From: an uncultured Candidatus Saccharibacteria bacterium
GTDB lineage: Bacteria; Patescibacteriota; Dojkabacteria; J137
DNA length: 64,000 bases
Reading direction: 5' to 3'
Assembly: GCA_965230975.1 (NCBI GenBank)
Contig: OZ246402.1
Location: 309,304-373,303, forward strand
In this document: positions 11,858-52,191 of the stretch, piece after piece
How the letters are laid out: each line of letters opens with the position of its first letter
Position numbering within the stretch: the first letter of the stretch is position 1
Position numbers and translations under genes: made by a program
The notes under the pieces: generated by a model
What the model was told of the DNA's origin: nothing
The model's input: the letters and a program-made list of their open reading frames with translations, nothing else
The model's database searches: none

Positions 11858-12225
11858 AGATTGCTTATATACTAATAAATATTTTAACCATAATGCTAAT
11901 AGGTGCATCTATTTTCTTTTTCTTGATTTCTAGAAATACTATAAATAAAGGTGACTTTAATCTAGAATATGTAATATCTTTAGAGGATAAAAGTATTACA
12001 TTTAAAAATAATGAACTTAATATTACAGATTTAGAAAATCAAGAATTTAGCATTAAAGCATCTAGTTATGTTGGTGATATAAAGCTTTTAAGTTCGATGT
12101 TTGGTGTTATAAAACAAGGAGATAATGAGGAATTATGGGTAAATAAAGGGGATTGTAATTATATATCTATAACATTTGTATCTGCGGATAAAATTAATAA
12201 TTTATACTGTATTAAATCTATCTAA
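11854..12225 (+). CDS. Hypothetical membrane-anchored protein
   Basis: 123 aa with an N-terminal TM segment. It is translationally coupled to both flanking ORFs (ATGA overlap at 11854 and TAATG overlap at 12225). Confidence 0.45.
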   Translation: MKIAYILINILTIMLIGASIFFFLISRNTINKGDFNLEYVISLEDKSITFKNNELNITDLENQEFSIKASSYVGDIKLLSSMFGVIKQGDNEELWVNKGDCNYISITFVSADKINNLYCIKSI

Positions 12226-14849
12226 TGAAACAAAAACTATTATTTACATTAATTCTGAGTGTAGCTTTTTCACTCTCAGGGTTTATTTTACCTGCTACAC
12301 ATACAAAGGTTTCTGCACAGGCTTGTACTTGTTGGCCTCCGGGAGCTACATCTGACCAAGGTTGTATGGCCTATGGATGTCCTACTGGAACAAGAAGGGT
12401 ATGTAATTGCAATGCGGGAGGTTCAGGAGGTGCCTGCACACCCGTTGCAGGTTGTGGGTCAACTTGTGGAGGATCATGGAGCTGTTATTGTCAACCTGAT
12501 GCATCATGCGGCGGCGGAGGAGGTGGTACAGCTTGCACACCAAATGCTCAAAGATGTAATGGTTGTGACAGAGTCCAATGCTTATCGGATGGTTCTGGTG
12601 AAATAATTATAGGTCCAGGTTCGTGTTGTACACCACCGCCCCCAGCATGCACTTCTACAGCACCTGCTGCAACAACCTTGGTGTCTCCTTCGAATAATGT
12701 AACTATACCCTCTAATTCTACGACGCTAAATTGGAATTCCAACAGTGCTTGGGGAACAGGATGTCCTTCAAACAATAATCAATACAGGGTGTTTTTAAGT
12801 CAAAATTGTACGGGAACATATACTAATATTGCAAATGTGGCCAGTTCTGTAACAAACTATAATCTATCGGGATTAACTTATGGAAGTTCTTATTGCTGGT
12901 ACGTTCAAACTTCAAATGGAAGTCAAACAGCAAATAGTGCTGTTTGGAGATTCACAGTGAATAACAATCCCTCTATAACTAGTTCCACTTTTGGTGCAGA
13001 TAGTTGTGGTTACAGTACTACAGGAAGGTTTGATTCAATATCCCCTAACAAAGTAAATCCTTTGACTTTTAATGTAGGTTTTAGTGATCCCGAGGCAGAT
13101 TTATTATCCGGAATCTTTATAGGTTTTGTTCCACAAAGTGCGTTAAATGCAAATACAGTCACATATGACCAGGTGTATTCTGCAGCTACAAATAATAATT
13201 CAATTGTAACTTTGCTGGGCTATTCAACTGCTGGGGTTCTGCAGAATAACTGGAGTTATAATATGCAATCTGGTGGGGTTGAAGTTCAAAATACTCCTGG
13301 TACAGCGACCCTCTTAGGTGCAGGTACTACTTCTAAAGTTACATACATAAGTCCTGGTAATTGGAACAGTAGTGTTACTATTAGGTTTGGAAATACATAT
13401 CCATCAGGCTTACAAAATGTTTATGTGATGGCAACTGTTTTGAACCCAGATGGAACTTATTCCACACCAAACCAGGGTTCATCGAGTTTATTAATGATGA
13501 CTAAAGTGGCAACCTGGTCATTTGATATGACTAATCCAACCGGCTCAATTGTATTAAGCAACTATGTTGGCAGTAATTTTACTGCTGCATGGAGTGGTTC
13601 AGATGCAAGTGGGTTAAAAAATGCATATTCGTATATTATTGCAGGTAGTAGTGGATCGACACTAACAGATACAACTGGTGGATACGCAATTAACCCACTA
13701 GGCACTGCAGATATGAATTACCCAACACCTTCAAACGCTGGTATTGGAATTGCTAATTTGCCAACTACTAGGAATTATACATTTACAGGTGTGTCTGACT
13801 ACACACTTAAACTAGCATTAGAAGACAGAGCTTGTAACGTTTATACTGCAACTGCAGGAGCAGTTATACCTACCTCATGGATATATTCTCGAGAAGGTAT
13901 AGTTTCTGCAAATGGAGGTATTTTAAACATTAAGATTCCAACTACAGTAGGGTCAATGAATATTACTGATTTAATAACACCGAACCCACCAACCGGTAAT
14001 AGTTCTTCACCTTATACAACCGCAAATAACTTTGTTGCAGAATCTCCATTGAAACTTGGTACAGGTAGTGTAATATCAGGGACTGGTACACTTCCTACTC
14101 CAGTAGCAACTATTTCTGCCAAAGATAGGTATACTTACAACTATTCTAATCAAGCTACGACGCCAGATACTAGATCAAATACAACTAATTGGTATAGTTA
14201 TGTTCTAGATTTGCTAAATAGTAATAATGCAAGCAATATACTTGCAGAAGGAACTTCTGGTTCTATTTATATTAGCGGTTCGGTTAGCACCTATCTAAAT
14301 GCAGTACTACAATTTTATAGAGGCCCAAGTGCACTTTCAGATACAACATCTATCTATACAATTCATATCCCATCTGGGCAAATGATATTTAATACCCTTA
14401 ACTGTGATAGAAGAGTTGTATTTATCTCTCCAAACCCAATGACACTTGTTCCAAACATAACTCGTAGTGGAACTGGAGGGTGCATTTTTGTGTCTGGTGG
14501 TAACGTCACTGTCTCTGCAGGTGGAAACTTAACTACAACTCCGCTTGCTACGGGTGGTAATTCCTCTTACGATGTCATAAACGGTTATATAATTTCTAAC
14601 GGAAGTTTTATATCAACTAAAGATAATGCTCAATCAGGTCCAAGCGATACTCCAGCTACAAGACAATGGGATGGGATGCTAATCAAAGGTGGTGTTTTGG
14701 CAACCAATGTAAGCTTAAATAGAAGCTTAAATTCTAGTGGAAATGCAGATCAACCTGCAGAAATTTATCAGTACGATCCATTCTATTCACTTACCTTTAA
14801 AGATGCATTGGCAAGCAGATTCTACACAATTAGAGAATATATTCCATAA
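12225..14849 (+). CDS. Large secreted Cys-rich surface protein (signal peptide, ~110-aa Cys/Gly-rich module, Fn3-like domain, long Ser/Thr/Asn-rich beta-rich region)
   Basis: 874 aa. Predicted signal peptide ending 'VSAQA'. Cys-rich stretch CTCWPPG...CCTPPPPAC. An Fn3-like segment 'LNWNSNSAWG...YCWYVQTSNG...WRFTV'. No C-terminal anchor. Confidence 0.6.
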   Translation: MKQKLLFTLILSVAFSLSGFILPATHTKVSAQACTCWPPGATSDQGCMAYGCPTGTRRVCNCNAGGSGGACTPVAGCGSTCGGSWSCYCQPDASCGGGGGGTACTPNAQRCNGCDRVQCLSDGSGEIIIGPGSCCTPPPPACTSTAPAATTLVSPSNNVTIPSNSTTLNWNSNSAWGTGCPSNNNQYRVFLSQNCTGTYTNIANVASSVTNYNLSGLTYGSSYCWYVQTSNGSQTANSAVWRFTVNNNPSITSSTFGADSCGYSTTGRFDSISPNKVNPLTFNVGFSDPEADLLSGIFIGFVPQSALNANTVTYDQVYSAATNNNSIVTLLGYSTAGVLQNNWSYNMQSGGVEVQNTPGTATLLGAGTTSKVTYISPGNWNSSVTIRFGNTYPSGLQNVYVMATVLNPDGTYSTPNQGSSSLLMMTKVATWSFDMTNPTGSIVLSNYVGSNFTAAWSGSDASGLKNAYSYIIAGSSGSTLTDTTGGYAINPLGTADMNYPTPSNAGIGIANLPTTRNYTFTGVSDYTLKLALEDRACNVYTATAGAVIPTSWIYSREGIVSANGGILNIKIPTTVGSMNITDLITPNPPTGNSSSPYTTANNFVAESPLKLGTGSVISGTGTLPTPVATISAKDRYTYNYSNQATTPDTRSNTTNWYSYVLDLLNSNNASNILAEGTSGSIYISGSVSTYLNAVLQFYRGPSALSDTTSIYTIHIPSGQMIFNTLNCDRRVVFISPNPMTLVPNITRSGTGGCIFVSGGNVTVSAGGNLTTTPLATGGNSSYDVINGYIISNGSFISTKDNAQSGPSDTPATRQWDGMLIKGGVLATNVSLNRSLNSSGNADQPAEIYQYDPFYSLTFKDALASRFYTIREYIP

Positions 14850-14876
14850 GATTAAGGTGTAGTATATAATTCTTTA

Positions 14877-15329
14877 ATGATTGTAAAAGAACTAAACCTT
14901 GTCCATCAAGAAAACCTTGTAGTTGAAATTAAAGAAGACACAGAACTACTCTTTAAATATGTTGGTATTAAAGATACCCAATTTAAAACTAAGGTTACTT
15001 TTCTACATAAATTACCAAATATAAAATCTAGAATAAATATTAGAGCGGTAGTTTTTGATAATGCTAAATTTGATCTAGAAGGTATATTGCAAATAGATAA
15101 AGGAGCAACAGGTACGGATACTTATTTAAAAATAGATTGTTTGGTTGTTGGAGATAATTCTTTTGCAAGAGCAATTCCATCTTTGGAGATAAAAGAATCA
15201 GAAGTTAAAGGAGGTCACGGAGCGACTATAGGTTATATAGATGAATCCCAACTTAATTATTTATACTCCAAGGGTTTAAGTAAACATATTTCAGAACAGC
15301 TTGTAGTAGACGCCTTTATTAATTCCTAA
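14877..15329 (+). CDS. Mini SufB/SufD-like protein (C-terminal beta-helix/SufC-interaction domain only)
   Basis: 'VKGGHGATIGYIDESQLNYLYSKGLSKHISEQLVVDAFI' aligns with the SufD/SufB C-terminal motif (SHGATVGRIDDEQIFYLRSRGI...AF). The ORF is bounded upstream by an in-frame TAA at 14853, so it is only 150 aa. Confidence 0.6.
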   Translation: MIVKELNLVHQENLVVEIKEDTELLFKYVGIKDTQFKTKVTFLHKLPNIKSRINIRAVVFDNAKFDLEGILQIDKGATGTDTYLKIDCLVVGDNSFARAIPSLEIKESEVKGGHGATIGYIDESQLNYLYSKGLSKHISEQLVVDAFINS

Positions 15330-22424: not shown

Positions 22425-22606
22425 ATTTTGATATTTAAATTACAATCATTTTACCCCTTTTAGTTTATCAAACAAAGTTATTTGTATTGTGAAAATTGGA
22501 TTGCTAGGACTGGCAGTTACTAAAAAAAATGATATAATCCTATCGCATTTAATAAGTTGGGGTAATTTAATAGGAATTTTAATTACACTAACTTAAAACT
22601 ACAAAT

Positions 22607-22691
22607 GCCGAGGTGGTGGAATTGGTAGACACCCTAGTCTTAGGAACTAGTTCCCGTCAAGGGAGTGCAGGTTCGAGTCCTGTCCTCGGTA
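22607..22691 (+). tRNA. tRNA-Leu (anticodon UAG), class II with a long variable arm
   Basis: The 7-bp acceptor stem GCCGAGG pairs with CCTCGGT. D-arm GGAATTGGTAGA. Anticodon stem CTAGT/ACTAG with loop CTTAGGA. Extra arm TTCCCGTCAAGGGAGT. T-arm GCAGGTTCGAGTCCTGT. Discriminator A. Confidence 0.85.
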
Positions 22692-22712
22692 TGTTAATTT
22701 AAAATTCTTTCC

Positions 22713-42259: not shown

Positions 42260-44164
42260 ATGAAAATAAAATTAATTTACCTTTTTTTATTGCTATTAGT
42301 AAGCTTTTGTTTACTAATTATTAGCTCTAAAATAATTAAGGCACAAGAAGTTACTTTGTTTATAAGTGAATTTTTGCCGGACCCCGAAGGTTCTGATTCT
42401 GGGAAAGAGTGGGTAGAAATTTTTAATAATTCAAATCAAAGTCTAACTATAAGTGCATGGAAAATAAAAAATACTTCATCTAGCGGTACTGTTAGAAATA
42501 TAGTTATTCCAAATGTTACTATAAATGCAAACCAGTACTTATTAATTGCAGATTCTAGTAATATAATTTTGCCAACTGCGAATAATTCAATAATAGTATA
42601 TTTACCACTTGGGAATGTTAATTTATTTAATACAAATTCCAAATTAGAGTTAATAAATGATTTATCTATAACTGTAGATTCACTAGATTACCTATCTTCG
42701 TCTGAAAATATAAGCTGGGAAAGAACAGGCCCTTATTGCAGTATTTTAGAAAAAAGTTTAACTGCAAATACATTAGGGCTTAATAACTCTCAAACTTCTT
42801 CACAGTGCTGGTCAATAACTCAAATTGCAAGTTACCCAAATCAAAACGAGCAAATACAGACTGTCGTATCAGAACCCATTGTCTATCTGCCATCTTATCC
42901 ATCAACACCTCAAGTAATTACGGAAGGCTTTTATAATACCAAATTACAAATAACAGAAATATACGCATCTCCACAAACAGGGGAAAAAGAGTGGGTGGAA
43001 GTTTACAATAATAGTAATGAGACAATAGAACTAACACAATTCAAATTATCTGAAGTAAATAGCTCAGATGTTTATGAGAAGTTTATGAGTTTGAATGGGC
43101 AAATAAATCCATATCAGTATTTGGCAATCGAAACAAGCACCATTACTTTAAATAATACTGGCGATCAATTAGCATTATTTTATAAACAAGAGTTAATTGA
43201 TCAAATAGACTACCCAAGCTTATCGAAAGGGGAGTCTTACTCTAGGGGTTTTAGAAATAATCAGTATAGCAATGATTGGTTTGTAACATCTAAAGTTACA
43301 AAATCTAGTTTGAATGCAAGTAACGAAATAGAGTTTATTCCATTAAGTCAAATTACCAACTACCAAACTGGAATAGTAATTAAAACAAAAGGGTGTATTA
43401 GTTTTATTAAAAGTGTTATGCCAGATAACTATGCTTACTTTATTAGTGATACTTACAGTTTAAAAGTTAAATTTATAGATGATAGTGATTTAAATATAGA
43501 TGATTGTTTAGAACTTACGGGTAAGCTTATTAAAACAAGTAAAGATAGTTACTTTTATGTGTCTAGTTATACTTTTTTAAACCAAAGTTTAAACAATAAT
43601 TATATAAATATAAATGGTGAGACAACATTTATTAACTTTGAAGGCAAATACGTTAGCCTAAGTGGTGTAAGTATTAAACGTAACTATACTTATTCACTTT
43701 TGCTTTCTAATGACTTAAAAATGAAGTATCCAGAAGATTTTGACCCTAATGATTATTCATCTGAAGATAGCATTAATATTGAGGGAGTAATTATAAAGTT
43801 AACTAATAGTTATTATATTTACCCATTTACTATTGAAAAAGAGCAAAGTGTATTGGGAGCAATCAGATATTCAGATGAAAATCTCTCAAATAAGCTTTCA
43901 GGTAATAATAATTCTAAGACTGTCGAACAAAATAAATTGAATTTAATTCAGCCAAATACTATAAAGATTCCAATAGCATACTTTCTATTACTTTTATGGA
44001 TTTTAGCGCATATCGTTATATTCAATAGAAATATTATTGCTTTAAAATTAAAGGTAGATAAATTTATGAAAGAAAGGGTAAAATACATGAATGCCAAAAC
44101 AACTTCATATTTTGGGAAAGACATATTTCATAGAAATTTTTCCAAAGAGACTACTAAAATCTAG
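42260..44164 (+). CDS. Secreted lamin-tail-domain (LTD) protein with two LTD repeats and a C-terminal TM anchor
   Basis: 'FISEFLPDPEGSDSGKEWVEIFNNSNQSLTISAWKI' and 'LQITEIYASPQTGEKEWVEVYNNSNETIELTQFKL' match the LTD consensus. There is an N-terminal signal and a C-terminal 'IAYFLLLLWILAHIVIF' segment. Confidence 0.65.
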   Translation: MKIKLIYLFLLLLVSFCLLIISSKIIKAQEVTLFISEFLPDPEGSDSGKEWVEIFNNSNQSLTISAWKIKNTSSSGTVRNIVIPNVTINANQYLLIADSSNIILPTANNSIIVYLPLGNVNLFNTNSKLELINDLSITVDSLDYLSSSENISWERTGPYCSILEKSLTANTLGLNNSQTSSQCWSITQIASYPNQNEQIQTVVSEPIVYLPSYPSTPQVITEGFYNTKLQITEIYASPQTGEKEWVEVYNNSNETIELTQFKLSEVNSSDVYEKFMSLNGQINPYQYLAIETSTITLNNTGDQLALFYKQELIDQIDYPSLSKGESYSRGFRNNQYSNDWFVTSKVTKSSLNASNEIEFIPLSQITNYQTGIVIKTKGCISFIKSVMPDNYAYFISDTYSLKVKFIDDSDLNIDDCLELTGKLIKTSKDSYFYVSSYTFLNQSLNNNYININGETTFINFEGKYVSLSGVSIKRNYTYSLLLSNDLKMKYPEDFDPNDYSSEDSINIEGVIIKLTNSYYIYPFTIEKEQSVLGAIRYSDENLSNKLSGNNNSKTVEQNKLNLIQPNTIKIPIAYFLLLLWILAHIVIFNRNIIALKLKVDKFMKERVKYMNAKTTSYFGKDIFHRNFSKETTKI

Positions 44165-44576
44165 GGTTATTATAGAGAAAGATAAGCTAATTATTTTTTT
44201 AGCAGAAAATCAAAATCAATCAGAGGCTTACGTTTTATTAGAAAATTTTTTAATAGAATTTGCAAGATCTTATATAACAAAAAGAACGGATCTATTTTGT
44301 AAACAATTTAGCTTTGAATATAATCGAATAGCTATAAAGGAACAGCGATCTAGGTGGGGTAGTTGCTCTAGTTTAAAGAATCTAAATTTTAATTGGAGAT
44401 TAATTTTTGCTTTACCTTTAGTTGTTGATTATGTAATTTTGCATGAGTTAGCTCATACCAAGCAAATGAACCATTCAAAAGCATTTTGGGATATAGTAGA
44501 AGAGTGTATGCCAAATTACCTGGCATGTAGAAATTGGCTTAAAATTAATGGAAAATCTTTATTCTCAGCATTTTAA
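44091..44576 (+). CDS. YgjP/DUF45-like (SprT/M48-like) zinc metallohydrolase
   Basis: 'ILHELAHTKQMNHSKAFWDIV' matches the DUF45 HExxH...NHS..FW signature. The 5' end overlaps the LTD gene by 74 nt, so the true start may be a downstream non-ATG codon. Confidence 0.65.
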   Translation: MPKQLHILGKTYFIEIFPKRLLKSRVIIEKDKLIIFLAENQNQSEAYVLLENFLIEFARSYITKRTDLFCKQFSFEYNRIAIKEQRSRWGSCSSLKNLNFNWRLIFALPLVVDYVILHELAHTKQMNHSKAFWDIVEECMPNYLACRNWLKINGKSLFSAF

Positions 44577-44700: not shown

Positions 44701-47400
44701 CTACTTCCTTGATCTTTTTCCTTTAGCCTTATTACTTAAATCATCTATTATACTTTCTTCATAAGGTCTAAATTGAACTTTGACATTATTAACTTTCCCA
44801 TTTACAGAATCAAATACAGAACCAACTAGTTTTTCAGATAACTGATATCCAAATTTAGTTCTATATACCATCACTCCAAGAGTTATAAACATTAATCCAA
44901 CTAACAACATTCTTGCATCATCAAATATACCTGTGTTTGGTATAGCTGTTGGTGTGCAGTTTAGCAATGTTCTTAAGTCAAATGTTGTGCTGTTATCTTG
45001 AGTTGTTGATGTGTCATACTGCAATTTAGCTTGGTTAACTACACCTGGTGCTGTGAATGTTAACAAATTAGCCCTTGGAATTGTTAACGAATAAGTAAAT
45101 GTTTTTGATTGACCTGCAGTGTATGTTCTAGCAGTAGTATCACCAGTCCAAGTAATTTTACCTCCAGATACAGAACTGTATGTTGGATTAATATTAGTTG
45201 GTTGTATTCCTAGTGTTACTGCATTTGCATCATATTTGTCTTCTACAAAGTCAATTACTCCTGTTACACTACCAATGTTTTTAGCTGTAACTGTATAGTC
45301 AATTCTTGCATCTCCATCTGCTTCGCAAACAACTGCACCACTTTTTACTACATTAAATAATGGTTCAGCTTGAGCAGTTTGAGATACTGTAATGCTTTCT
45401 AAACATTCTGTTGGTGATGTTAATGCGGTTGATCCATCTAATAATACTCTTACATCATATGATCCAGCAGCTACTCCTGTTCCATTTGGTGCTGCAGATT
45501 CCCATCTGAATGTATATGTGTGAGTGCTAGTTATTGCGTCAAATGAATATGAGTATGCACTTACCAACGAACTAGATGTGTTTAATGCATCTCTTCCAAC
45601 TGGTGAGCCAGCTGTTCCTACTCTTAACCTTATATTTGGATAAGGGTTAGTTGTAGCTGGGTTTTGGTATTTCAAAACGTATTCTAAGTAGTTACCTGTA
45701 CCACTTGCTATAGGGTCATTTCCACTTTCAGTTAAATCAATACATTGTGCTGCTACTACTGTACATGTTGCTGTATTTAAAGATACAGGGTTTGTATTAA
45801 TTCCGCTTGTTGTTAAATAAACTCTTACATAATATATAGTTCCTTGTTGTAGTGTAAATGCTGTGCTACCTGTAAATCCAGTACCGTTAGTTACTGTTGT
45901 TCCAGATGGTACATTTTTGCTCCAATAGGTTGCAAAGTTTGATGTTGTTGATATATCTACTCTTACTGCTTGAGCAGGGTATGTTCCCATGTTCCAACTT
46001 ATTGTTGCTGTAGGTACTGTTGATCCTTCTGGACAAGTAGATGCTACAGTTGCAGTTGGGTTCGTTTCTGGTGTACATGTAGGTGATGTAGGATTATCAG
46101 GTAATCTACATCTATTTTCTGTACCAATGTTATAACAAGTCAAACCACTAGCACATAATATATTTGAAGAATTACAAATCTCATTACACTGAACAGTTTG
46201 AGTTGAAGGTGTATTTGGTGGATTGCCTGGAGTTGTAATTACCGTTGATGAGTTGAAACACTCAGGTTGAGCTCCACACGATGCACCCTCTCTATAGCAT
46301 TTCACTGCTCCATTAACGCTATAGCAATTATCACATTTATTACCACTTCCACCGCTAATTACATTACCACAACCTAGGAATCCGCTGGATGCAAGAGCAT
46401 AAGTCAGTGTCCCATCAGGAAGTTTGACTTCTTGACATTTTCTTAATGCCGCATTTTTTCTACATTCATCCTCTGTAAAACAAAATGCATCCTGTAAATT
46501 CTTTTGATCTGCCGTAGCACAGGAAGCACCGCAGGCATCTGTATTTATTATATCTGTTTTCCATTGGCCTAGTTGACTACATTGTACACCACTTGTTCCA
46601 CCAGTACATTTCCATGTAAAAGGAACACAAACTCCACCAGTAGGTATGGTACCTTTACTACCTGGAGAAGTACATGCAATAGTAGCCCAAACAGACTCTT
46701 GTTGAACTGTTGAACCATTTTCGTTATAACCACACCTAAATCTACCATCAATACATGAATAACATCCAAGTCCAATTCCACAGCCATCAGTTGCTGCATC
46801 ACCAGGTGTACAAGGGTCACCTATAGTTCCTAAATTAGATCCGTTATCGGACCCGCCAGTTACACTACCATTACTTGCTGTACAAGATGCACATGCTGGC
46901 TCATCTTTTGAACCTGTTGAACAACTAGCATTAGATTCTCCAGGATCACATCTTCCATCGTTTGGTCTGGCTGGGTTAATAGGTTCTCCATCTCTTGTTG
47001 TGGTTCCACAAAATCTATTTGTAGGGTACCATGATCCAGCCCTACATTGGTATTCTGCATTATATTGGTCACAAATAAAACCTTGATCTGGCGTGCCATT
47101 ACAACTAGTTGTACTACCAGTTGGAATTCCATTACCTCCATTAACTTGGGCAGAAAAACCTCCGCACTCTGGCCTAGCTGCAAAGTAGTCAGAACAACCA
47201 CAACCACAAGATTGCGAGCAACCCCATGTGCAAGCACTTGAGCTATCTGGGGCAAGGCCACTTTCTTGTGAAAGTCTATAAGCAATGAATAAAGAAACAG
47301 CAGCCAATACTACAATAAGTAGTATTAAAACGATTTTGAATACGTTCTTAGTTTGAACTTGTTGCATTGTTTTCTCCATTAAATCTATTATTAACACCAA
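44701..47400 (-). CDS. Giant Cys-rich surface protein (N-terminal signal-anchor, ~350-aa Cys-rich region, Fn3-like domain, DUF11-like repeat, C-terminal sorting-signal-like hydrophobic segment)
   Basis: 899 aa, about 60 Cys in the N-terminal third. Fn3-like segment 'TATISWNMGTYPAQ...IYYVRVYLTTSG'. 'VVCEADGDARIDYTVTAKNIGSVTGV' resembles a DUF11 repeat. 'IPNTG' plus a hydrophobic stretch plus 'RTK' lie near the C-terminus. The real start is possibly at internal Met 8 or 12. Confidence 0.6.
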   Translation of the reverse strand: MVLIIDLMEKTMQQVQTKNVFKIVLILLIVVLAAVSLFIAYRLSQESGLAPDSSSACTWGCSQSCGCGCSDYFAARPECGGFSAQVNGGNGIPTGSTTSCNGTPDQGFICDQYNAEYQCRAGSWYPTNRFCGTTTRDGEPINPARPNDGRCDPGESNASCSTGSKDEPACASCTASNGSVTGGSDNGSNLGTIGDPCTPGDAATDGCGIGLGCYSCIDGRFRCGYNENGSTVQQESVWATIACTSPGSKGTIPTGGVCVPFTWKCTGGTSGVQCSQLGQWKTDIINTDACGASCATADQKNLQDAFCFTEDECRKNAALRKCQEVKLPDGTLTYALASSGFLGCGNVISGGSGNKCDNCYSVNGAVKCYREGASCGAQPECFNSSTVITTPGNPPNTPSTQTVQCNEICNSSNILCASGLTCYNIGTENRCRLPDNPTSPTCTPETNPTATVASTCPEGSTVPTATISWNMGTYPAQAVRVDISTTSNFATYWSKNVPSGTTVTNGTGFTGSTAFTLQQGTIYYVRVYLTTSGINTNPVSLNTATCTVVAAQCIDLTESGNDPIASGTGNYLEYVLKYQNPATTNPYPNIRLRVGTAGSPVGRDALNTSSSLVSAYSYSFDAITSTHTYTFRWESAAPNGTGVAAGSYDVRVLLDGSTALTSPTECLESITVSQTAQAEPLFNVVKSGAVVCEADGDARIDYTVTAKNIGSVTGVIDFVEDKYDANAVTLGIQPTNINPTYSSVSGGKITWTGDTTARTYTAGQSKTFTYSLTIPRANLLTFTAPGVVNQAKLQYDTSTTQDNSTTFDLRTLLNCTPTAIPNTGIFDDARMLLVGLMFITLGVMVYRTKFGYQLSEKLVGSVFDSVNGKVNNVKVQFRPYEESIIDDLSNKAKGKRSRK

Positions 47401-48203: not shown

Positions 48204-48959
48204 ATGCTACAAATAAAAAACTTAAATATAAATTTGGCTCAAGGAAAAGAGATAGTTAAAAACTTTAACTTAACGGTTAATCCGGGTGAAATACATTTAC
48301 TTAATGGCAAAAACGGAAGTGGAAAATCTACATTGGTAAACACATTAATGGGTAATCCAAACTTTGAAATAATAAGTGGAGAAATACTTTTAAAAGATGA
48401 AAATATACCTGAATACATTTTAGAAAAAATTGATAACGAGTTCGTTACAAAAAACGAAAAAGAAATAACTATAAATCTCACACACTTAGAACCAACAGAA
48501 AGATCCTTGTGTGGCTTATTTTTAGCAAATCAGTACCCAATTGAAATCCCAGGCGTTTCTTTAACAAGTTTTTTAAGATTAATATATAACGCAAGAAGAC
48601 CAAAAGAAGAACAATTACCTGTTTTTAAATTTAAAAATTTATTATTAGAAAAAGCAAAACTAATAAATTACCCGGAACACCTATTAAAAAGAAACTTAAA
48701 CGAAGGTTTTTCAGGAGGAGAAAAAAAGAAAACGGAGATACTTCAAATGTTAGTATTAGAACCTAAATACGTATTTTTAGATGAAATTGATTCTGGTTTA
48801 GATAAAAGCTCTGTTCAAGAAGTTTTTACTGGAATTTCAGAATATAAAAAACTATTCCCGCAAACTGCATTTATAATAATAACTCACTACGATAGAGTAA
48901 AAGAATTCTTAAAAATTGATTTTGAGCATGAAATGCAAAATGGAGAATTAATTGCATAG
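48204..48959 (+). CDS. sufC: Fe-S cluster assembly ATPase SufC
   Basis: Walker A 'GKNGSGKST', signature 'FSGGEKKK', Walker B 'LDEIDSGLD', H-loop 'ITHY'. The N-terminus 'MLQIKNL' is collinear with E. coli SufC. The ORF is also open from the ATG at 48183. Confidence 0.85.
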   Translation: MLQIKNLNINLAQGKEIVKNFNLTVNPGEIHLLNGKNGSGKSTLVNTLMGNPNFEIISGEILLKDENIPEYILEKIDNEFVTKNEKEITINLTHLEPTERSLCGLFLANQYPIEIPGVSLTSFLRLIYNARRPKEEQLPVFKFKNLLLEKAKLINYPEHLLKRNLNEGFSGGEKKKTEILQMLVLEPKYVFLDEIDSGLDKSSVQEVFTGISEYKKLFPQTAFIIITHYDRVKEFLKIDFEHEMQNGELIA

Positions 48960-49069: not shown

Positions 49070-50398
49070 ATGGCAACGCCAAAAACAGAAGAAAAATCTT
49101 TACCCACATCACCTTTGCTAAACGCACAACCACCAAAAACAAGAAGCACTATAAATCTAAATAAAATGGAAGAATCTAAGTTTACACATAGAAGTGAAAC
49201 TAAATCATCAGAAACAAGCTCCTTAAGAATAATTGCCTATGTAGCAGTTGTTATTGTGGTAGGAGTAGGCGCTGCATTATTGGCTAGGCAGTTAATGGCA
49301 AATAATAATACAGTAGTTGAAAGTGAAGATACTCAAGAACAAGAAACTAATACACAACCAGTTTCTTTCGCAACTTCAAGTTATTTGGTAGATACAATGG
49401 TTAAAAGTGATAGTAGTGCAACAAATAAACCAGAAAATTCAGATTTTAAAACATCATCTTTACTAAGCTTGGGCACAAATAATGTAAACATGGTAAGTGC
49501 AAGTTTAGATTCAATTTCGTATTCAAAATATCAAACTTTTGCTAGAACAACTTTTGTTATGAGTACTACTGAAAATAAGTTTCCAAAAACTAATATTTCG
49601 TATGACTCATCTAAAGATACTTTAAGTTTGGAAATAGTGGGTTTAGCAAATATTACAAGTGAATTAAAAGAAACAAAGAATATTAATGATATTGTTGAAA
49701 CGATCTCTTTTGATGAATCTACTGGAAAGTTTACCCTTCAGTTTTCTCAAACAAGCGTATATAGAGTATATGCAGTAGAAGATACATTGTTTGTAGATAT
49801 TAGAACAGAAGATGAATATACCTCTCAATCTAACGAAGAAACATCAACTTCAAATGAAGATACGGATACATCTAGTCAAACTGAAACTAATACAAATACC
49901 AATTCTGGTTCGACTACAACAACAGATTCAAGTAAACCAACTGCTCCTCATTATGAAAATGATTTTTCTCAAAACACACAATACGTTTCTAGCAAAGTTA
50001 ATACAAAATCAATTGCATTAAATAATTACTATACATGGGACGAAGGAACATTTTTTGAGTTTAGTTGGGCAGAAGAAGACAAAAAAGGAGATGATTATGT
50101 CCCAAATGCTAAGGCTTATTTAAAAGAAGAATCAGGCACAAATTATTTGTATATAGAAATTGAAAATCTAACAAGGGCAACATTGCCAGGTGGAATAACT
50201 GCAGAGGAGATCGCTACAAAAACGAGTGTGAATATGGCAGGTGCAAATTTTGTAGAATTAAGTTTGGTAGAATTTAACCAAACAACCGGAAAAGCTATTT
50301 ACAAGATTGAGTTAAAAAAGAAAGCTAATTTTCAATTATTAACTCAAGAAACATATTTGGGTGATACACAAATTCTAAGCGTACAAATTAAAGACTAA
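49070..50398 (+). CDS. Hypothetical membrane-anchored Ser/Thr-rich protein
   Basis: 442 aa. TM segment 'IIAYVAVVIVVGVGAALLA'. It has a low-complexity S/T/N linker. Confidence 0.5.
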   Translation: MATPKTEEKSLPTSPLLNAQPPKTRSTINLNKMEESKFTHRSETKSSETSSLRIIAYVAVVIVVGVGAALLARQLMANNNTVVESEDTQEQETNTQPVSFATSSYLVDTMVKSDSSATNKPENSDFKTSSLLSLGTNNVNMVSASLDSISYSKYQTFARTTFVMSTTENKFPKTNISYDSSKDTLSLEIVGLANITSELKETKNINDIVETISFDESTGKFTLQFSQTSVYRVYAVEDTLFVDIRTEDEYTSQSNEETSTSNEDTDTSSQTETNTNTNSGSTTTTDSSKPTAPHYENDFSQNTQYVSSKVNTKSIALNNYYTWDEGTFFEFSWAEEDKKGDDYVPNAKAYLKEESGTNYLYIEIENLTRATLPGGITAEEIATKTSVNMAGANFVELSLVEFNQTTGKAIYKIELKKKANFQLLTQETYLGDTQILSVQIKD

Positions 50399-51281: not shown

Positions 51282-51572
51282 TTGGTGATGACAAAGAAAA
51301 TAAAGTATGAAATACTAGTGTTTATGTACGCGAGTCAACTAAATATTTTAAAAAATATCTTTTGGGAATTTGATATCTCTTTGCTTGATATTACTAAGCA
51401 TTCTGTATTTATTATAGAACGAACATTAGAAAAGGGGAGAGAGGAACATGTGAGTTCTCTTTTTAAAATATACTCAAAACACCAAATACAAAGTGTGTTA
51501 GAATCTTCAAATAACCTTAGCTTTAAAACTAAGAACTTTTGGAGTTTATTCTTTAAATATGCCCTTACATAA
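51282..51572 (+). CDS. Hypothetical small protein, overlapping the AbiEii-like gene by 14 nt (possible cognate partner)
   Basis: 96-aa ORF. No motif. Position and coupling suggest the partner of the downstream nucleotidyltransferase. Confidence 0.4.
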   Translation: MVMTKKIKYEILVFMYASQLNILKNIFWEFDISLLDITKHSVFIIERTLEKGREEHVSSLFKIYSKHQIQSVLESSNNLSFKTKNFWSLFFKYALT

Positions 51573-52191
51573 AAACACACTAAATACTCAAAGCTTTAAA
51601 CTTTTAGAAAATATAAATTCACACCCTAATTTTAAAAACTTTTATTTAGCTGGTGGAACTTCTTTGGCATTACAAATTGGCCATAGGGAATCAATTGATC
51701 TGGATTTTTTTTCAGGAGTTGAATTTCCTTTTAGCCTTATAGATTCTATTAAAAAGCCATATCAGGCTATATCTATTCATAACAACTCTATAGAAGCCGT
51801 TATGGATGAAACCAAGATTTTCTTTTTTTATTTTGCTTTCCCAAGGTTTAAAGATATTAAAATTATACAAGGAATAAGATTTGCAGACCCGATTGATATT
51901 GGATTAATGAAGTTACTAGCCTTGCAAGGCAGAACAACAAGAAAAGATATTATTGATTTGTTCTTTATAGATAAAGAGATAATCAATTTAGAAGATTTAA
52001 TGGAGATTTTCCAGTATCATTATCCTAAAGAGAAATTCAATTCAATAGACAGTATTAAAACATTGATTGACAGTAGTGTTCTAGATAGTCAGCCAATGCC
52101 TAAAATGCTTGTAGATTTTAATTGGGAAGAATCTAAAATTGTTGTAATTGAAAAGTTAATAAAATCTATATCTAAGTATTTAATAAAATAA
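51559..52191 (+). CDS. AbiEii/AbiGii-family nucleotidyltransferase (type IV toxin-antitoxin / abortive-infection toxin-like)
   Basis: 'FYLAGGTSLALQIGHRESIDLDFFS' matches the family signature GGTAL...R.S.DLDF. 210 aa. Confidence 0.6.
   Translation: MPLHKNTLNTQSFKLLENINSHPNFKNFYLAGGTSLALQIGHRESIDLDFFSGVEFPFSLIDSIKKPYQAISIHNNSIEAVMDETKIFFFYFAFPRFKDIKIIQGIRFADPIDIGLMKLLALQGRTTRKDIIDLFFIDKEIINLEDLMEIFQYHYPKEKFNSIDSIKTLIDSSVLDSQPMPKMLVDFNWEESKIVVIEKLIKSISKYLIK

Follow-up and report, generated by a model that had tools for sequence, protein, structure and literature searches.

By its sequence, a 150-aa protein encoded in a 64,000-nucleotide stretch of Dojkabacteria DNA (hereafter the window, approximately 5% of a genome of about 1.19 Mb) is a shortened variant of SufD. 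This protein, referred to here as mini-SufD, probably serves as the SufD subunit of a SufB-SufC2-miniSufD scaffold, in which its residue His114 would complete the cluster site at the subunit interface. All the residues by which SufD is recognized were found in mini-SufD, whereas the architecture of the full-length protein was not. The evidence for this assignment comes from profile and structural comparisons, from the conservation of the short form across the Candidate Phyla Radiation (CPR) and its position in the suf operons of this group, and from the co-occurrence of full-length SufB in sister genomes.

Identity and predicted fold of the 150-aa protein

The features of the window are listed in Table 1. 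As had been predicted originally, the reading frame of mini-sufD cannot be extended upstream: an in-frame TAA precedes the start codon, and the unrelated 874-aa ORF that constitutes the upstream neighbour ends at position 14849, 27 bp before the ATG, leaving no room for an N-terminal extension. The gene is flanked by genes encoding unrelated secreted or membrane proteins, in a window with a G+C content of approximately 31%. A scan for promoters and terminators around mini-sufD gave the counts expected by chance, and no informative Fe-S client motif was detected among the ORFs of the window.

Some additional features of the window were recorded. The 874-aa ORF, with a Cys/Gly-rich N-terminal region, and an 899-aa ORF containing 46 Cys both lack significant Pfam matches, and a predicted signal peptide or Cys-rich sequence is a trait of these two very large ORFs. 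A tRNA-Leu gene is the sole tRNA and also the sole Rfam match above the gathering score in the 64 kb, and a 96-aa ORF, possibly an antitoxin gene, precedes a gene for a nucleotidyltransferase toxin domain of the AbiEii type (type IV toxin-antitoxin).

Table 1. Coordinates of features in the window (positions are those of the whole stretch).
Feature	Position	Strand	Remarks
874-aa ORF	12225..14849		directly upstream of mini-sufD
In-frame TAA upstream of the mini-sufD start	14853..14855	+	sequence read directly
mini-sufD	14877..15329	+	complete gene, stop codon included; 150 aa
Cys88 codon of mini-sufD	15138..15140		
Pro101 codon of mini-sufD	15177..15179	+	equivalent to E. coli SufD Pro347, dimer interface; alignment offset 246
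His114 codon of mini-sufD	15216..15218	+	equivalent to E. coli SufD His360; VKGGHGATIG versus VKCSHGATVG in E. coli
C-terminal helices of mini-SufD, residues 123-149	15243..15323	+	retained part of the SufC-docking helical subdomain (predicted)
tRNA-Leu	22606..22692		
LTD-domain and YgjP-like metallopeptidase gene pair	42260..44576		
899-aa ORF	44701..47400		
sufC, ABC-type ATPase	48204..48959	+	TIGR01978 234.9 bits, cutoff 212.8; solitary, 33 kb from mini-sufD
442-aa ORF	49070..50398		directly after sufC
AbiEii-type toxin domain gene	51559..52191		

The profile search of the 150-aa protein was clearly significant. PF01458 (SUFBD_core) matched residues 21-147 with an E-value of 4.3e-29 and 102 bits (cutoff 27); since the match extends over profile positions 106-232 of 232, it is confined to the C-terminal half of the domain. 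Among the NCBIfam models, TIGR01981 (sufD) ranked first, with 108 bits over positions 138-260 of 275, a score that does not reach the cutoff of 222 of this full-length model; lower scores were obtained for TIGR01980 (sufB, 67 bits, cutoff 346) and NF052511 (SmsB, 36.5 bits, cutoff 650). The family profile could be aligned without gaps, at an offset of 246, to residues 268-395 of E. coli SufD (E = 2.6e-28), compared with E = 1.7e-14 for SufB. Together with the PF01458 match, this alignment bears out the original description of a stand-alone protein that corresponds to the C-terminal portion of SufD, comprising the last part of the beta-helix and the SufC-docking helices. Full-length SufDs (15 queries in tblastn) matched the window solely at approximately 14820-15326, through their C-terminal third. 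The protein carries HGAT where SufB has HEA(S/T), with Ile86 at the position of SufB Cys405 and Gly115 at that of Glu434. The TIGR01981 score, the profile E-values, the HGAT motif and Ile86 are the reasons for its assignment to SufD rather than to SufB or SmsB.

The structural model points in the same direction. The AlphaFold2 prediction for mini-SufD, based on an alignment of 46 sequences, reached a pLDDT of 95.8, and DSSP assigned to it nine beta-strands, equivalent to about 4.5 turns of a beta-helix, followed by helices at residues 123-131 and 136-149. When the model was compared with known structures using Foldseek, the best matches were SufD chains (5AWF, 1VH4, and 2ZU0; query-normalised TM 0.78-0.83, rmsd 2.2-3.0 A), headed by 5awf_B (TMq 0.80, rmsd 2.2 A), with SufB coming next.

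SufD is a beta-helix of nine turns, each made of two strands, and has a helical subdomain at either terminus (PMC6006206). Its dimerisation is end-to-end and brings Pro347 and His360 to the interface, and SufC binds the C-terminal helical domain, in which Tyr374, Arg378, Gly379, Ala385, and Phe393 are conserved (PMC6006206). His360, proposed as an Fe-S ligand at the SufB-SufD interface, is the only residue of SufD found to be essential in vivo, and mutational work revealed no essential residue in the N-terminal helical domain or in the first half of the beta-helix (PMC6006206). The SufD residues named in this review all fall in the segment kept by mini-SufD, and all of them are conserved. In addition to the interface residues Pro101 and His114, the five SufC-docking positions correspond to Tyr128, Lys132, Gly133, Ser139, and Phe147, respectively. 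According to sequence and predicted model, mini-SufD keeps the partner-facing end of the beta-helix, the His ligand, and the SufC dock, and is devoid of the N-terminal subdomain and approximately half of the helix.

Short SufD proteins in CPR genomes

The presence of the same mini-ORF in related CPR genomes had been suggested as a check in the original prediction, and such ORFs were found. A word-indexed search with mini-SufD returned 157 homologues, down to approximately 50% identity, and the 120 listed were all 146-168 aa long. The named homologues are labelled as Dojkabacteria (WS6, a CPR/Patescibacteria lineage) or as Patescibacteria, and several of the homologues lie on contigs of 0.8-1.2 Mb. 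Candidatus Dojkabacteria is also the label of the best named homologues of the window's genes. Overall, more than 170 homologues of 146-168 aa, with identities as low as about 35-50%, agree with mini-SufD in start and length. When 1.84 billion cluster representatives were searched exhaustively with HMMER, 1,353 matches were obtained at E<=1e-10. Among the 149 nearest 50%-cluster representatives (the best 150 of these 1,353 matches minus the query itself), 51 were 140-175 aa long, 64 were 175-260 aa long, and 16 exceeded 330 aa.

The family alignment was also used to scan 185,579 species-representative genomes, and the best 80 of 513 confirmed matches were analysed. All the informatively labelled records among these 80 are CPR, including Dojka-, Curtiss-, Peregrini-/Peri-, Gracili-, Magasanik-, Ames-, and Doudnabacteria. 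More than half of the species loci (43 of 80) hold sufC, sufB, short sufD, sufS, and sufU, and the order C-B-D-S-U is maintained in all 43; SufU is present in the gene set of the CPR relatives, and SufE is not. Partial suf neighbourhoods, mostly on short contigs, were found in 19 of the 80 loci, and the remaining 18 showed no suf gene within their flanks. The SufD ORFs with suf neighbours range from 107 to 353 aa (median 178) and the solitary ones from 121 to 168 aa (median 149). The constant gene order across 43 loci identifies the short protein, of about 150-240 aa, as the ordinary SufD of CPR suf operons, located between full-length sufB and sufS-sufU. The very reduced scaffold envisaged in the original prediction, with the half-size protein as the sole partner of SufC, is therefore not supported, since short SufD is normal in operons that also contain a full-length sufB. 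As regards gene content, a peptide deformylase gene lies between sufB and short sufD in one locus (L005) and approximately 1.4 kb upstream of sufB in another (L086).

Conservation within the family was assessed in an alignment of 171 short members. Met1 is common to 158 of them, and Pro101 and His114 are invariant (171/171); His114 was also present in all 86 tabulated sequences, corresponding to 85 fetched loci plus the window. Glu104, Tyr128, Gly133, and Phe147 are near-invariant. At the positions involved in SufC docking, Tyr128 was found in 169 members, Arg, Lys or His at position 132 in all 171, Gly133 in 170, Ala or Ser at position 139 in 154, and Phe147 in 167. Another residue, Cys88, is present in 20 of 22 solitary mini-sufD loci versus 3 of 64 others, these three being the lineages L017 and L025, which are transitional, and the window itself, placed in this group on account of its visible sufC. 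A role for Cys88 as a ligand comparable to SufB Cys405 was rejected, since Cys405 aligns with Ile86, two residues before, and position 88 is occupied by V, A, T, I or C. Cys88 is probably a clade marker, at what appears to be a buried-core position rather than a ligand site.

The data on length and start also bear on whether the ORF is a pseudogene remnant or a mis-assembled fragment of a once full-length sufD. Such an origin would be compatible with a protein that represents only the last third of canonical SufD and scores below the TIGR01981 cutoff, but it is extremely improbable and, to the extent that sequence data allow, already refuted: more than 170 sequences, drawn from numerous species and assemblies, agree in start and length, identical copies of mini-sufD occur in two independent Logan assemblies, no SufD-like remnant lies upstream, where the gap to the preceding gene is in any case too small, and the fold prediction is very confident. 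Indeed, upstream stops bound the short sufD ORF in 77 of the 80 species loci, and tblastn with the 15 full-length SufDs detected no N-terminal SufD gene or remnant, neither in the 85 related loci nor in the window itself. The original prediction had regarded as contrary to its proposals a full-length SufB elsewhere in the genome combined with evidence of a pseudogene remnant; the former was found, in sister genomes (see next section), and the latter is clearly not the case.

A split sufD, with its N-terminal half encoded apart, was likewise considered and rejected, as the N-terminal tblastn matches were only to intein-interrupted SufB genes, none of them in the window. Inteins interrupt several CPR SufB genes (L021, L044, L060, and L066; P0451 and P0300), splitting the tblastn matches, as illustrated by an 830-aa SufB with intein Pfam domains.

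Dispersed suf genes in the Dojkabacteria subclade of the window

The only other suf gene of the window, sufC, is intact, in agreement with the original description: its product scores above the TIGR01978 cutoff (Table 1) and keeps all the ATPase motifs, namely Walker A (GKNGSGKST), signature (FSGGEKKK), Walker B (FLDEIDSGLD), and H-loop (ITHY). The SufC of this clade differs from operon-type CPR SufC in two respects: approximately 20-24 aa are inserted ahead of the Q-loop region (around residues 65-90), and the C-terminal ~17 residues are absent. In L025, where sufC and sufB are still adjacent, SufC has no tail and the insertion is shorter (~18 residues). SufC relatives at 63-73% identity are also encoded by solitary genes, whereas at 56-57% identity sufC is still followed by sufB. 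In the window, the place occupied by sufB in other CPR is taken by a 442-aa ORF, whose product carries a TM helix at its N terminus. This membrane protein is encoded after sufC in 6 of 8 close relatives, which are those whose contig reaches far enough (L089-L095, 34-59% identity). It was discarded as a cryptic SufB on the basis of an hhalign probability of 0.2%, its TM anchor and S/T-rich linkers, and the lack of a significant Pfam match. The original observation that the 64 kb contain no other suf gene was upheld, as tblastn with SufB, SufS, and SufU queries from a related suf operon (E<=1e-5) matched only the mini-ORF and sufC.

The absence of sufB, sufS, and sufU from the window, the occupation of the sufB slot after sufC by an unrelated conserved membrane protein, and the formation of SufC2D2 complexes in E. 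coli (PMC6006206) would all fit a minimal module in which SufB, and perhaps SufS and SufU, had been lost, (mini-SufD)2-SufC2 working alone, either in the handling of iron or ATP or as a scaffold of greatly reduced size. Nevertheless, such a module is quite unlikely, as five long contigs of the subclade carry both SufB and a stand-alone mini-SufD, separated by tens to hundreds of kb. Using as queries the SufBs from the two nearest operon-bearing lineages, full-length SufB (451-454 aa) was found on contigs of 862,240, 817,811, 1,149,470, 1,117,227, and 243,599 bp. In the complete genome AP024679.1 (862,240 bp), direct look-up placed sufB at ~788 kb and mini-sufD at ~836 kb, the respective positions in CAUJCN010000002.1 being ~172 kb and ~422 kb; for the 1,149,470-, 1,117,227-, and 243,599-bp contigs, the SufB and mini-SufD records are equal in bp and were taken to represent the same contig. 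These SufBs keep the Cys of the VICDAL motif and the His and Glu of EHEAS, equivalent to Cys405, His433, and Glu434. The presence of full-length sufB on the same contig as stand-alone mini-sufD in these genomes further speaks against the idea of the half-size protein as the sole partner of SufC.

Other data add to the case against a module without SufB. The sequence constraints on mini-SufD are the same in operon-type and in stand-alone lineages; a mini-SufD homodimer, with Ile86 and Gly115 in place of the SufB residues Cys405 and Glu434, would offer two His only; and scaffold activity of SufC2D2 is not reported in the literature found. In a small and poorly resolved tree of mini-SufD, the window is placed among SufB-positive genomes. 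On the other side, the SufB of the window's own 1,193,217-bp contig and those of two relatives (1,114,243 and 1,140,724 bp) were absent among the 120 matches listed in each of the two SufB searches. As the group of 451-aa SufBs runs past the 120 matches listed in the second search, this constitutes weak, though not nil, negative evidence. SufS and SufU were located in no genome of the stand-alone subclade. It is very unlikely that the lineage of the window differs from its sisters by the loss of SufB, SufS, and SufU, with SufC and the 150-aa SufD as the only components left. If it did, no known SUF-derived machine would be smaller than (mini-SufD)2-SufC2, which would either assemble clusters by means of a bis-His site and external ligands or perform non-scaffold work.

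In the subclade of the window, sufB, sufC, and sufD are each solitary. Solitary mini-sufD loci are mostly those nearest to the window (at least 52% identity), and a neighbourhood of the type rnhB ... mini-sufD ... fusA is common to the window and BOLA01000001.1. A gene pair encoding an LTD-domain protein and a YgjP-like metallopeptidase, also present in L169 (6288..8825), lies upstream of sufC in the window, with two minus-strand ORFs between, and in L091, L094, and L095. The same pair is found upstream of sufB in AP024679.1, with one gene between, and is the only part that the neighbourhoods of solitary sufB share with the window. This placement looks like the footprint of a broken ancestral sufC-sufB pair. 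An ancestral CPR operon sufC-sufB-sufD-sufS-sufU would thus have been broken up in this subclade of Dojkabacteria, the dispersed genes being simply co-required. Under this proposal, it is because of the breakup of the operon that mini-sufD stands alone, and probably not because SufB is missing.

Two further observations concern related genomes. Assembly GCA_034680565.1 holds contigs of two Dojkabacteria, one with an intact suf cluster (L005, 26 kb) and the other with scattered suf genes (L087, 1.117 Mb); since the assembly is apparently metagenome-level, co-occurrence has to be judged per contig and not per accession. Genes for small 4Fe-4S ferredoxins (Fer4_13/15) lie within approximately 5 kb of sufB in three loci, next to a solitary sufB in L086 (9177..9674) and L170 (5640..5978), and within the suf cluster in L005 (3602..3886). 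Those located beside a solitary sufB indicate that Fe-S clients exist in the subclade with scattered suf genes.

The dispersal of the genes bears as well on the other function suggested in the original prediction, a repurposed module in which the mini protein would bind SufC and serve a different role, e.g., regulation of the SufC ATPase. The uncoupling of the gene from the other suf genes, its unrelated secreted or membrane neighbours, and the modified SufC of the clade are in line with such a role. However, the SufB-facing residues Pro101 and His114, and the motifs PSLEI and VKGGHGAT, are invariant in the stand-alone lineages too, which would not be expected if SufC docking alone mattered, and the orthologues in other CPR are inside the suf operon. 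Repurposing is hence unlikely, and the results favour a SufD that still works together with SufB.

Proposed scaffold and comparison with known systems

We propose that the ORF encodes the native full-length SufD of the organism, naturally minimised, its helical domain at the N terminus and the initial half of its beta-helix having been discarded across CPR. A full-length SufB, as well as SufS and SufU, would be encoded in the genome outside the window. One mini-SufD would pair with this SufB in an end-to-end manner, and each of the two would bind one SufC to form the SufB-SufC2-miniSufD scaffold. The beta-helix part, bearing the interface Pro and the essential His, would act as the SufB-pairing face, and the helices as the SufC-docking surface. 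The Cys, His, and Glu ligands of SufB would form a cluster site that becomes complete with His114, and the ATP-driven dimerisation of SufC would open the interface and expose this site, as proposed for E. coli SufBC2D (PMC6006206). With its insertion and missing tail, the altered SufC of the clade may give rise to a complex that differs from the E. coli model.

Mini-SufD represents a natural deletion experiment on SufD carried out across many CPR lineages, and it suggests that a SufBC2D-type scaffold requires from SufD no more than the last approximately 4.5 turns of the beta-helix, the interface Pro and His, and two SufC-docking helices. This agrees with mutational results in which only His360 was essential (PMC6006206). 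With its 150 aa, such a SufD would also lend itself, as a minimal partner, to structural and mechanistic studies of the SufB-SufD interface. Regarding genome annotation, equivalog models of the TIGR01981 type miss short SufDs, so that CPR genomes may be wrongly scored as devoid of SufD, and scattered suf genes are open to misreading as loss of the pathway. Annotation pipelines already label short CPR proteins as 'SufD family'; no description of the short SufD of CPR or Dojkabacteria was found in the literature searched.

Among known proteins, the closest counterpart is E. coli SufD (423 aa; PDB 1VH4, 2ZU0, and 5AWF chain B), with which mini-SufD shares the fold and the interface and dock residues. 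E. coli SufD is the partner of SufB in SufBC2D, and the CPR relatives of mini-sufD are likewise linked to sufC, sufB, and sufS. In contrast to the E. coli protein, mini-SufD lacks the first ~250 residues and ~28 residues at the C-terminal end, retaining about 35% of the length, has Gly112 at the position of Cys358, and is encoded outside any operon in the window. SufB (495 aa in E. coli, PDB 5AWF chain A; 450-490 aa in CPR) has the same SUFBD_core fold, and its His433 corresponds to His114, but mini-SufD is devoid of its Cys405 (Ile86), Glu434 (Gly115), SufBD_N domain, and sulfur-entry half of the beta-helix.

SmsB from M. jannaschii (MJ0034, 316 aa; PDB 9H78 and 9H7Y) is also a shortened member of the SufBD family that pairs with a SufC-type ATPase, and its match to mini-SufD is weak (E = 8e-12 in sequence, TMq 0.63 in fold). 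SmsB is a homodimeric scaffold that replaces SufB, each subunit supplying Cys, His, and Glu ligands (PMC12442378). Mini-SufD, in contrast, has the His only, and its CPR orthologues coexist with a true SufB, so that it does not constitute an SMS system.

The sufCDSUB cluster of B. subtilis is a suf operon of the Gram-positive type, with SufU as sulfur relay and a SufD of ~430 aa. The CPR relatives have the same gene set (C, B, D, S, and U), but in the order C-B-D-S-U and with a SufD of 150-240 aa, and in the subclade of the window the operon is gone. Mini-SufD probably does not represent a novel type of system.
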